Source: a virus (taxonomy: Duplodnaviria; Caudoviricetes). From it: a DNA stretch of 64,000 bases. The notes beneath the pieces were generated by a model. That model was not told where the DNA came from. It did no database searches and was given only the letters and a program-made list of their open reading frames with translations. Position numbers and translations under genes: made by a program. Location: the IMG/VR virus record IMGVR_UViG_3300023119_000004. One strand, given 5' to 3'. This document shows, piece after piece, positions 30,536 to 33,433 of the stretch; the first letter of the stretch is position 1, and every line of letters starts with the position of its first letter.

Positions 30536-30976
30536 TTAGCCATCACCTTCAGTATCGTCAGCACCTGTTAGTACGTCATCTGATGTACCAAGAGTTGCGT
30601 CAACACCTGCGCCAATGCCTGTACCTGCTTCTTCAACTGCTACTGTATCACCAGTACCTGTGAAGTCCCAGTTAATTCTTGAACCGTTGTCCATAGTAAG
30701 AACACGACCAGAAATTTTAGTTACTTGACGAGCAGTACCACCGTCATCAACTGTAATAGTCATTTCACCTGCCGCGATAGCCGCTGATGCTTTGTCTACT
30801 AGGTAGCAAGTACCAGTGTCTGTTCCGCCTGCATTTGAAACTTTAAAACGCTTTGAACCAGTTTGTTTTACAATGTAACCCGGTGTTGAACCGTTACCTG
30901 TGTTAAACTGGACCTTAATTTCTGAACCACCTGCTGTAGGTGCTCCGAAATATCTTTTATTAATAGGTCTTCCCAT
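30536..30976 (-). CDS. Virion structural protein (true start likely ATG 30976, MGRPINKRYFG)
   Basis: AAGGAGA RBS at 30983-30989; the track's upstream extension overlaps a structured leader. Confidence 0.7.
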   Translation of the reverse strand: MGRPINKRYFGAPTAGGSEIKVQFNTGNGSTPGYIVKQTGSKRFKVSNAGGTDTGTCYLVDKASAAIAAGEMTITVDDGGTARQVTKISGRVLTMDNGSRINWDFTGTGDTVAVEEAGTGIGAGVDATLGTSDDVLTGADDTEGDG

Positions 30977-30982
30977 TTGTTT

Positions 30983-31074
30983 TCTCCTTATTAGAAGTCC
31001 GATGCACGTTCTAGGTGCTACGGGGTTGGATCCCCATAAGTCCGCCACTCTTGCGGCACACTATCTGACACAAG
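30983..31074 (-). promoter_or_regulatory. Candidate structured 5' leader (three hairpins plus possible pseudoknot next to the RBS)
   Basis: Stems at 31043-31058, 31019-31038 and 31004-31018; loop UAGAA is complementary to UUCUA (30992-30996). Confidence 0.5.
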
Positions 31075-31077
31075 TAT

Positions 31078-31497
31078 TTATCTAATTGCTGTGATTGGTG
31101 AATTATTATTACGAACTGCAAGATTTATAAAGGATCTTATAAAGTCAAAGCGTGTTGCAAGTATTTCAAATAAATCTGTATTAAAGCCTTCTTGCACAAG
31201 CGTATATGAACTTTTTCCTATATCTGAATAGTACCGCACACTTATTCCATACTCAGGAAAAACGCCTGTAACAAACAAACAACTATCTCCTAATTCTTTT
31301 GCTGTGTAGTTGTATGGACGTTTGAGTTTTAAAAACTCTTGTGCAAAGGTTTGTTTTGGAAGAAAATTTGGTTTGTCTATTTTGTCTGCAAGAAGCATTA
31401 CTACATAGGCTTCAATTTCGGTCGGAAGATCAAACCCAGTAGTTGACTGTGCCTCGCGGACAATGTCGTAAAAGGCCGATGTGTATTCGTCCCTCAT
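31078..31497 (-). CDS. Conserved hypothetical protein (GDxCLFxxGxFP motif)
   Basis: 139-aa ORF with a CTAAATA box 5 nt upstream of the ATG. Confidence 0.75.
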   Translation of the reverse strand: MRDEYTSAFYDIVREAQSTTGFDLPTEIEAYVVMLLADKIDKPNFLPKQTFAQEFLKLKRPYNYTAKELGDSCLFVTGVFPEYGISVRYYSDIGKSSYTLVQEGFNTDLFEILATRFDFIRSFINLAVRNNNSPITAIR

Positions 31498-31510
31498 ACT
31501 AATATTTAGT

Positions 31511-31546
31511 CAAAAAAATAGGCCCAATGCGAACAGAGGGCCTATA
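31511..31546 (-). terminator. Rho-independent terminator of the cold-shock gene
   Basis: AUAGGCCC...GGGCCUAU stem followed by a U-tract. Confidence 0.8.
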
Positions 31547-31558
31547 GTTGTAGTTCTA

Positions 31559-31759
31559 CTACTTGACTGTTAAGTTTACAGCAGAAGGGCCTTTTGGACC
31601 ATCCTGAATTTCAAACTGTACAGTATCGCCTTCGTTCAACGAGTGTAAGCCTGCGGCTTCTACTGCTGAAATGTGTACGAAAATATCTTTATTTTCACTT
31701 GCGATAAATCCAAAACCTTTAGCGGAGTTGAACCATTTTACTTGTCCTTGATTACTCAT
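31559..31759 (-). CDS. cspA: Cold-shock protein (CSD)
   Basis: GQVKWFN, RNP-1 KGFGFI, RNP-2 [17 protein letters not shown]. Confidence 0.95.
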
Positions 31760-31879
31760 GTTTTTCCTTGTTCGTGTTTATATTTGAGGAAGTTTGTATC
31801 TAATATTAGGGCGGGAGGTTTGTTAATTCTACTGCGTCTTGTTCTTATTACTGTCTTGTCTCATTTGTATTTAGTCAAT

Positions 31880-31912
31880 AAAAAAGGTTTATCCAGTCTC
31901 CCGAATAAACCT
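31880..31912 (-). terminator. Rho-independent terminator
   Basis: AGGUUUAUUCGG-GAGA-CUGGAUAAACCU 12-bp stem with GNRA loop, followed by UUUUU. Confidence 0.85.
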
Positions 31913-32139
31913 CTTTTAGGCATAAGCAAAATAGGTAGGACTTGGTTACACCTACAACCCTTCGACGCAGATACCTATCTGAATCCCAGGAACCGACTTC
32001 CGCTCGGTAGAGCAATGTGACACAACGCATTTCTGCAACCATGCCTGGGTACCACCCCTAAGCCGTCAAGTTCGACCCTCTGGTAAAGGCCTCTTCCTTG
32101 CACTATATACATCGGACCGCTAAATCCTTTGCAACTTAT
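31880..32139 (-). ncRNA. Candidate ~260-nt structured ncRNA of unknown family
   Basis: GC-richer intergenic block with multiple stems, bounded by a sigma70-type promoter and an intrinsic terminator; no credible ORF. Confidence 0.6.
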
Positions 32140-32145
32140 AATACT

Positions 32146-32174
32146 AATATAACAAATGTTTGTGAAAAAAGCAA
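32146..32174 (-). promoter_or_regulatory. Sigma70-type promoter TTGCTT-N17-TATATT with TGn extended -10
   Basis: -35 at 32174-32169, -10 at 32151-32146, located downstream of the gp23 terminator. Confidence 0.6.
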
Positions 32175-32210
32175 GTAGTAAGTTTACCAAAATATAGAAA
32201 TTGGAGTCAT

Positions 32211-32241
32211 AAAAAAAGGGCGAACCTAAGTCCGCCCTTTT
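32211..32241 (-). terminator. Rho-independent terminator of the capsid operon
   Basis: AAAAGGGCG...CGCCCUUUUUUU. Confidence 0.85.
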
Positions 32242-32266
32242 AATCAGTTTAGTAACTGTCTCTGGC

Positions 32267-33433
32267 TTACGAGAAAGTAACGTTGCTAATAGCAACTGTA
32301 CCTAAGTAGTCTGCCGCATTACCTAGAGATGATGCTGTGTTTGATAACTCAACATAACCGTATCTAGTCATGAACGAAACTACTGGCTCGAATGAAGCCG
32401 GATCTAGCACAACACCGCTTGACATTAAAGGAATGTATGGGCAGTAGAATGCTGGAGCATCTGACTCAGATGAACCTTTGTAGCCAACTAGTACTGAAGT
32501 ACTGTCGTTTGCATATGAATCAACGTAAATCTTCATAGCACCATTCAAAGTACCAACCATTTTAGTGTTTGTTGGTGCTTCAAAAGTACCTTCAGTTGTT
32601 CTTGCGAACGCTGAAGTTGTTGCTGATTGAAGAACAGTTAAAGCGTGTGGTGAAACTACTGCGTAGTTACCAGCGCCTCTACGTGTACGCTGAGCGATAG
32701 TGTTAGCAACACGGTTGATCATCACAGCCAAAGCCGCGTGTTCGTCACCTACGAATGTTGCAGTACCTGATACCGCTGTTTGGTCATATGACTGTTGGTT
32801 TTGCGTACCAGCCAATGCACGTAATGAAGCAAGAACTTCTTGGTCGATTTCAGCAGTAATTTCTTGTGCTAAAGCCGCCATAATTTCAGCCTCAATATCG
32901 ATACCTTGCTGTGCTTGAGCATCTTGAGCCGCTTCAAACGTCCAACGAGCACTCAACTTACGAGTTTTCGCTTCGACAGTTTGTTTCAAGATTTGAATCG
33001 ACATACGCTTACCAGCCGCACCTTCAAGTGCCGCAGTAGCGGAACCTGCTGGAGTAGCATCTGTAGCGTTACCTGAATAGGCCGCCGCGATCTTGAACGG
33101 TGATAATGCTTCTTCACCAACTTCGTTACCATCAGATGAATCTGCGTAACGTACTCTTAATGTGTGGATCTGACCAACTGGACCAGTCATTGGTTGTACA
33201 CCAACCAATTCGTTTGCGATCACAGTAGGCATAACCCTTCTGATTACTGGTAGGATAACTCTGTTTAGAGTTGCGACATTACCGGCACTTGTAGCACCTG
33301 CTGTTGCAGTCTCATTCAACCACTTGCGTGTGTTTTCTAGAGTACTTGCCATTACAGCCTTTTTGTTACCATTTAGGCCTTCTAAAAGTGCAGTTTTGGT
33401 ATCCTGCCAGCGACTTTCTAGTAGTTCTGACAT
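32267..33433 (-). CDS. gp23: Major capsid protein, T4 gp23-like
   Basis: VGVQPMTGPVGQIHTLR, VEAKTRKL.ARWT.E.AQD, AEIMAALAQEITAEIDQE, YCPYIPL, MTRYG. Confidence 0.96.
   Translation of the reverse strand: MSELLESRWQDTKTALLEGLNGNKKAVMASTLENTRKWLNETATAGATSAGNVATLNRVILPVIRRVMPTVIANELVGVQPMTGPVGQIHTLRVRYADSSDGNEVGEEALSPFKIAAAYSGNATDATPAGSATAALEGAAGKRMSIQILKQTVEAKTRKLSARWTFEAAQDAQAQQGIDIEAEIMAALAQEITAEIDQEVLASLRALAGTQNQQSYDQTAVSGTATFVGDEHAALAVMINRVANTIAQRTRRGAGNYAVVSPHALTVLQSATTSAFARTTEGTFEAPTNTKMVGTLNGAMKIYVDSYANDSTSVLVGYKGSSESDAPAFYCPYIPLMSSGVVLDPASFEPVVSFMTRYGYVELSNTASSLGNAADYLGTVAISNVTFS

Follow-up and report, generated by a model that had tools for sequence, protein, structure and literature searches.

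The structured element between the capsid gene gp23 and the cold-shock-domain gene csp of an uncultured T4-like phage is a divergent member of the manA RNA family (Rfam RF01745), and the stretch flagged for it is a separately transcribed structured RNA gene that the original prediction had delimited correctly. We give a probability of about 0.6 to the reading that this gene specifies a free-standing manA RNA, made early by the host polymerase, which oligomerises and is not a riboswitch. The near-consensus host promoter, the private terminators, the RNA-only operons with tmRNA and tRNA genes, the unrelated downstream genes and the presence in RNA libraries lead us to argue that manA is a stand-alone RNA gene, against the riboswitch or cis-regulatory label under which it is filed. 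The RNA family itself is already known; its gene organisation is the apparently unpublished point.

The window, i.e. the whole 64,000-nt stretch of DNA analysed, belongs to virus record IMGVR_UViG_3300023119_000004 (Duplodnaviria; Caudoviricetes), with the element at positions 31880–32174. The capsid protein is nearest (68–71% identity) to those of Sinorhizobium phage Phosso, Vibrio phage 2.275.O and Serratia phage BF (jumbo T4-like). The 185-kb record of the phage is rated 51% complete, which makes a genome of ~360 kb plausible; the phage is T4-like and probably a jumbo phage. No tmRNA was found in the 185-kb record, itself about half a genome.

The element is a divergent manA RNA

The original prediction saw, by eye, no likeness to tRNA, tmRNA, RNase P, SRP or glmS. 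Read as a claim that the element resembles no known family, this was wrong, since Rfam manA aligns with it end to end: model positions 1–192 match 31925–32122 on the minus strand with 44.7 bits (E = 3e-10 on 621 nt; E = 2.1e-11 per genome), and the match is unique within the 185-kb record. An already described family was among the outcomes that the prediction had set against itself, and manA is such a family. The match came from a permissive, below-threshold Rfam scan of the region, and its score lies under the manA gathering cut-off of 55.2 bits. When the whole window was scanned at gathering thresholds, no match fell on the element, and the only family reported was freshwater-2, elsewhere in the window. 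Besides manA, the permissive scan of the region returned only look-alikes of terminator hairpins. The element was unmatched by the models of tRNA, tmRNA, RNase P, SRP, 6S and other described RNA genes, and an ARAGORN scan of the window gave neither tRNA nor tmRNA.

Membership of the window RNA is established through intermediates. The homologue search downstream of gp23 that had been proposed was run on 80 loci encoding close relatives of the capsid protein, and nhmmer found clear homologues of the element in 13 of them. Among phage isolates, blastn matched only Pelagibacter phage Mosig EXVC030M (79.9% identity, in a region that is unannotated), which nhmmer matches too. Ten homologues found by nhmmer or by covariance model pass the cut-off with 55.5–75.4 bits (L007, 75.4; L136, 73.7; L177, 67.3; L137, 67; L086, 64.7; L167, 64.4; Mosig, 64; L025, 56.4; L056, 55.7; L038, 55.5). 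The window RNA shares with the family the nine-helix fold, the conserved junction and loop sequences and the occurrence in marine or aquatic T4-like phages. It differs in its score, in a P6 that is longer than the Rfam consensus, and in its bearer, an uncultured and probably jumbo T4-like phage as against a cyanophage; its P1 and P8 are also weaker than those of its relatives.

The Rfam threshold misses the window RNA along with a large set of copies in related phages, so that annotation under-counts the family. Among these is a large group before gp32-like genes (L168, L101, L122, L109 and ~25 similar loci), which falls below the gathering score; its consensus promoter is perfect, and TATAAATA follows immediately after the RNA. 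In the cultured phage Mosig the RNA (L001:2478–2685, corresponding to MT647606.1 ~108161–108348; 64 bits, unannotated) is followed after 22 nt by the start codon of a rubrerythrin gene, and the gp32 gene comes next.

Promoter, terminator and layout of the locus

Every gene in this part of the window is on the minus strand (Table 1). The original prediction described TTGCTT-N17-TATATT with a TGn motif after the capsid terminator, then a GC-richer block and a 12-bp terminator with a GAGA loop, and each of these can be read in the sequence. The 17-nt promoter spacer ends in TGT, with the TG at 32154–32153 forming an extended -10 element; transcription is predicted to start near 32139. The terminator has a folding energy of -15.8 kcal/mol, and its hairpin is present in the minimum-energy fold. 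An RNA of about 259 nt would result, with its ends put at 32139 and ~31881. Block 31925–32131 contains 50.2% GC, compared with 37.6% across the window. The prediction had called this block ORF-free; taken literally that does not hold, as the ORF list has three that overlap it (55, 106 and 115 aa), but a coding-potential check found no frame that stays open across the homologues, so that the block is free of conserved ORFs.

Table 1. Coordinates of the features discussed, as positions of the window.
Feature	Position	Strand	Remarks
gp23, major capsid gene	32267–33433	-	Pfam Gp23, E = 4e-99
gp23 terminator	32211–32241	-	sequence read; GC-rich hairpin 32218–32237, U-run 32211–32217
Sigma70-type promoter	32146–32174	-	-35 TTGCTT 32174–32169; -10 TATATT 32151–32146
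manA RNA core, helices P1–P9	31925–32131	-	Rfam match and model R1
P1 hairpin	32127–32114	-	
P2, closing stem	32106–32103 with 31934–31931	-	AUAG with CUAU
L3	32079–32087	-	UUUACCAGA; conserved
L5	32050–32055	-	GUGGUA; complementary to L7
L6	32029–32034	-	GNRA tetraloop GAAA on long hairpin P6
L7	32004–32011	-	UCUACCGA; partner of L5
L8	31971–31978	-	AUAGGUAU; tip of P8
P9	31955–31951 with 31939–31935	-	GUAGG with CCUAC; 100% paired, covarying
L9	31940–31950	-	UGUAACCAAGU
manA intrinsic terminator	31880–31917	-	A-run, 12-bp stem (31912–31901 with 31896–31885), GAGA loop (31900–31897), U-run (31884–31880)
csp, 66-aa cold-shock-domain gene	31559–31759	-	Pfam CSD
139-aa ORF adjoining csp	31161–31508	-	no Pfam match

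A simple consensus scan of the window reported neither the TTGCTT promoter nor the manA and gp23 terminators, and the terminators were therefore detected by folding. The scan did give an alternative promoter, TTCACA-17-TATTAT, which overlaps the TTGCTT one; it is the TTGCTT promoter, not this alternative, that lines up with the promoters of the homologues. A survey took in 75 distinct full-length copies whose flanks were long enough; of these, 67 carry a near-consensus sigma70 promoter whose -10 element ends 12–14 nt before the RNA model. These promoters read TTGAC(A/T) or TTGCTN, a spacer of 16–17 nt, TGn and TATA(A/T/G)T, many of them being a perfect TTGACA-17-TGn-TATAAT, and the window promoter is the orthologous version. 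Terminators lie 4–23 nt past the RNA in 32 of the 75 copies (26 distinct sequences), and contigs from RNA libraries overlie the element in the window (see below). The claim that a structured non-coding RNA here has its own transcription unit, complete with sigma70 promoter and terminator, is thus upheld by the fixed promoter distance and by the terminators of the homologues.

The TTGCTT box also allows the reading that the promoter is of the T4 middle type and the RNA a middle rather than an early one. In the window and five close relatives TTGCT(T/C) replaces TTGACA, and TGCTT in the -35 region is similar to the core of the MotA box. However, the distance of 17 nt to the -10 element is that of a sigma70 -35 element, and homologues carry TTGACA or TTGACT at the same position. 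We consider a middle promoter highly improbable.

Two further motifs were noted beside the unit. A conserved box, (T)ATTTTGGTAAA(C), at 32182–32195 on the minus strand, lies 1–25 nt upstream of the -35 element of the manA promoter and is common to the window and several relatives (L002, L005, L007, L022, L056); it may serve as an UP-like element or a binding site, or mark where the preceding unit ends. A candidate late promoter for csp, CTAAATAC after the manA terminator, with similar boxes after homologous terminators, was rejected as statistically unsupported: the window contains the octamer once, against 3.6 expected, and TAAATAC 15 times, against 20.9 expected.

Comparative support for the fold

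The structure is supported by comparison. RNAalifold applied to ten homologues rebuilt the Rfam fold independently, with 53 pairs, 35 of which show compensatory changes. A covariance model built from these ten sequences (R1) gave the window 208 bits and found 100 copies in loci fetched by a conserved-core DNA pattern. Across 88 distinct homologues, 95% of the pair cells were paired, compared with 74% in shuffles and 32–50% with shifted partners; 42 of the 53 pairs have changes on both sides, and none of 500 shuffles reached the observed values. Taken alone, the window RNA folds only modestly better than shuffled sequence (z = -1.74), a result that was not used as evidence. The fold agrees with the manA consensus structure in its closing stem around a hairpin, its four-way junction with three hairpins and its two further hairpins, and the conserved unpaired nucleotides of the family are present (GUGCAAGGAAGA junction, UACC and GGUA loops, GNRA loop, CCAAGUCC). 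Conserved structure among homologues, one of the checks proposed with the original prediction, is thus found.

The individual helices drawn in that prediction fared unevenly when examined in the 75 full-length homologues. The GAAA hairpin and the hairpin at 31968–31981 are real, corresponding to P6 and the tip of P8. The long-range UUGACG/CGUCGA stem, the CCCAGG/CCUGGG stem and the GGUU/AACC hairpin are paired in 63%, 53% and 51% of cells, respectively, and none covaries. UACCUAU, suggested as an alternative partner of the AGGU loops, is instead the 3' strand of the conserved P9 and closing stem, and the conformational switch, built on unconserved stems, falls with them.

Loop complementarity matches published cage contacts

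Several manA RNAs have been solved by cryo-EM as pentamers, which assemble further into closed decamers or an icosahedral-like cage of 60 subunits (10.64898/2026.07.01.735769; preprint of July 2026, not peer reviewed), in vitro, at high RNA concentration and with other family members. The contacts are intermolecular kissing interactions, L5–L7' and L8–L9', and in another variant L3–L8' together with a GNRA contact in which L6 docks on a receptor in P6' (10.64898/2026.07.01.735769). With our helix numbering matched to this work (the GNRA loop being L6), we asked which loop pairs stay complementary among the 75 homologues. L5–L7 (z = 8.4) and L8–L9 (z = 8.1; 0/300 permutations for each) alone stand out among the loop pairs, while L3–L8 co-variation is weak (z = 2.7); the permutation ignores phylogeny, and the z values are not to be read as probabilities. 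The co-varying pairs, as judged from the homologue sequences, match the published cage interfaces specifically.

In the window RNA, UGGUA of L5 can pair with UACCG of L7, and UACC of L3 with GGUA of L8, while L8 and L9 can form three pairs only (GGU with ACC). Since the loops of each pair, L5/L7 and L8/L9, stay complementary, as they do in the cage-forming manA RNAs, the window RNA most likely forms homo-oligomeric particles.

Gene arrangement across the family

The settings of the 75 copies vary. Thirty, the window included, have both promoter and terminator. A promoter without a terminator is found in 37 copies: in 26 the RNA is followed at once by TATAAATA, the T4 late-promoter consensus, and a gp32-like gene, and the other 11 are without this arrangement. 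Eight copies have no promoter, and in six of these a different RNA gene comes immediately before manA. For L136, L137 and L086 it is a two-piece tmRNA of the alphaproteobacterial type, which manA follows after 10–12 nt; L110 was placed in the same group by flanks near-identical to those of L136 and L137, not by the tmRNA scan. In L177 and L111 a tRNA-Gly gene is immediately upstream of manA; the L177 order of promoter, tmRNA, tRNA, manA and terminator makes an RNA-only operon, and in L119 manA stands among tRNA genes. The genes downstream are unrelated (among them gp32-like, rubrerythrin, csp and cytidylyltransferase-like genes and one with a freshwater-2 leader), and several have apparent promoter-like boxes of their own. 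The suggested partnership with the adjacent cold-shock protein finds no backing here, since csp follows in 3 of the 75 copies and some relatives are without csp altogether.

These data bear on the strongest competing explanation, in which the RNA is a riboswitch or cis-acting leader that senses a metabolite or protein and sets read-through past the terminator into csp or, in relatives, translation of the next gene. Rfam classes manA as such a cis-acting RNA, and so did Weinberg et al. 2010, who proposed this reading when they described the motif (PMC2864571). Promoter, structured RNA, terminator and gene are the classic layout of a riboswitch, the junction and loop nucleotides are as highly conserved as in an aptamer, and contigs from RNA libraries extend past the terminator into csp. 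About half of the homologues lack a terminator, which physically makes their RNA a leader of the gene that comes next; 37 of the 75 copies have a promoter and no terminator, and in Mosig the start codon of the rubrerythrin gene follows the RNA by 22 nt. However, no expression platform with an alternative pairing that competes with the fold was found for the 26 distinct terminators; these start 4–23 nt past the conserved fold without overlapping it, and the complementarity of their arms to the RNA does not exceed that of shuffled arms (mean z = -0.21 for the 5' arm and -0.58 for the 3' arm), so that no antiterminator is evident. Nor do the genes that follow share a pathway, as would be expected of the targets of one riboswitch. 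Several copies behind tmRNA or tRNA genes belong to RNA-only operons that end in a terminator and leave no gene to regulate, and kissing contacts between RNAs account for the conserved loops. The searched literature, 16 years after the proposal, holds no ligand. As for a place in the 5' UTR of csp, a strong terminator and 120 nt separate the window RNA from that gene, although some RNA-library contigs cross the terminator. On balance we regard the riboswitch or leader explanation as unlikely, and prefer the free-standing RNA.

The glutamine riboswitch (RF01739), which has a terminator platform, makes the comparison concrete. It resembles the window unit in the order of promoter, structured RNA, terminator and gene, and in relatives it belongs with manA to the same intergenic RNA cluster behind gp23. 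The window manA differs from terminator riboswitches in that it has no alternative pairing between fold and terminator, no consistent regulated gene and no known ligand.

The locus in RNA libraries

Many salt-marsh metagenomes contain the locus, as do metatranscriptomic libraries of the same sample kind. Contigs from four salt-marsh RNA libraries cover 31928–32105, 31906–32044, 31745–32044 and 31611–32124, with 0–5 differing letters; as assembled contigs they attest the sequence, while the ends, strand and level of the RNA are beyond their reach. Among the contigs listed, the promoter gap at 32125–32260 is uncovered in three of four runs, and the remaining run has a contig at 32089–32359. The 139-aa gene is empty or nearly empty of contigs, which speaks against mere carry-over of DNA. 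Three contigs extend over the terminator into csp (31745–32044, 31611–32124 and 31538–31935). Together with the one that crosses the promoter, they point to read-through in both directions or to some DNA in the libraries.

The crossing contigs are what would be expected if the element were a passive, stable 5' or 3' module of longer messages (late read-through from gp23, or run-on into csp), processing or stabilising them without a separate role: one contig (32089–32359) bridges the end of gp23 into the element and three bridge the element into csp. Late transcripts of T4-like phages, moreover, frequently extend over early units. A passive module would, however, have no need of the dedicated near-consensus promoter found in 67 of the 75 copies, and compensatory change has maintained nine helices and specific loop–loop pairs. 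Its position relative to gp23 and csp is unconserved as well (gp23 upstream in 27 of 63 copies; csp downstream in the three noted above). We think a passive module quite improbable; this reading and the middle-promoter one are both weaker than the riboswitch or leader explanation.

Proposed mode of action and comparison with known RNAs

According to the preferred reading of a free-standing, oligomerising RNA, host RNA polymerase with sigma70 would start near 32139 at the extended -10 promoter, transcribe the nine-helix RNA and mostly stop at the intrinsic terminator, leaving a discrete RNA of ~259 nt. This would take place early in infection. The RNA would act free-standing and not as the sensor of a downstream gene, and the complementarity of L5 with L7 and of L8 with L9 would bring the molecules together in homo-oligomeric particles. 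For the role of such particles we can offer guesses: they may serve as scaffolds or containers, or divert a host factor as decoys.

A broader proposal, which we advance tentatively and with less than even confidence, is that all manA RNAs are not cis-regulators but strongly expressed free-standing early phage RNAs, sometimes made together with tmRNA and tRNAs, which assemble into pentamer-based cages in the infected cell and serve as an RNA-only compartment, scaffold or decoy. If this is true, the window unit and the cultured Pelagibacter phage Mosig provide a natural system for asking what an RNA cage does in vivo. Our literature search found no paper that treats transcription units, ligands or an in vivo function of manA, and the arrangement with an own promoter and terminator, or in tmRNA/tRNA operons, seen in the window and many homologues of a family filed as cis-regulatory, is undescribed in the papers found. 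The preprint labels manA putative cis-regulatory and is silent on transcription units (10.64898/2026.07.01.735769); its cages of 10 to 60 subunits, formed in vitro, come without a biological context, which the transcription-unit structure and the kissing-loop co-variation supply.

Two other sets of phage RNAs invite comparison. The T4 tRNA cluster contains the stable RNAs species 1 and 2 (rnaC and rnaD), of unknown function and co-transcribed with tRNAs. In arrangement they resemble the tmRNA–tRNA–manA operons of L177 and L111, whereas the window RNA stands by itself. GOLLD and ROOL are, like manA, phage-borne and ornate RNAs of unknown function that self-assemble into closed multimers, and they often lie beside tRNA genes. 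They are unrelated to manA in sequence and fold and several times longer, so that the likeness is one of working, not of membership; neither gave an Rfam match in the window or in the permissive scan of the region. All three are grouped as natural RNA-only assemblies in the preprint (10.64898/2026.07.01.735769).

Neighbouring RNA elements in the window and its relatives

In six relatives (L002, L022, L023, L031, L038, L056) a glutamine riboswitch (RF01739; e.g. L022:4237–4284) lies between gp23 and manA, giving a row of glutamine riboswitch, manA and freshwater-2 behind gp23; the window has no riboswitch at that place. Two-piece (permuted) tmRNAs of the alphaproteobacterial type occur in many related contigs (L086, L106, L136, L137, L168, L177; e.g. 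L136:2879–3169), a hint that these phages infect alphaproteobacteria and that they interfere with ribosome rescue.

A freshwater-2 RNA (RF02980, 71.6 bits) is found in the window at 30974–31058 on the minus strand, between a GATAAATAC box (31082–31074) and a ribosome-binding site with ATG. The gene behind it begins MGRPIN, with its start at 30976, and the listed ORF 30536–31048 overcalls this start. In relatives, freshwater-2 follows 60–100 nt after the manA terminator and precedes the same MGRPIN gene; it looks like the leader of a late gene. One contig joins 31086 to 31915 and represents a relative from the same samples in which manA and its terminator are directly followed by freshwater-2; csp and the 139-aa gene (31078–31759, minus strand) are accordingly an insertion in the window phage, compared with related phages that have manA and freshwater-2 side by side.
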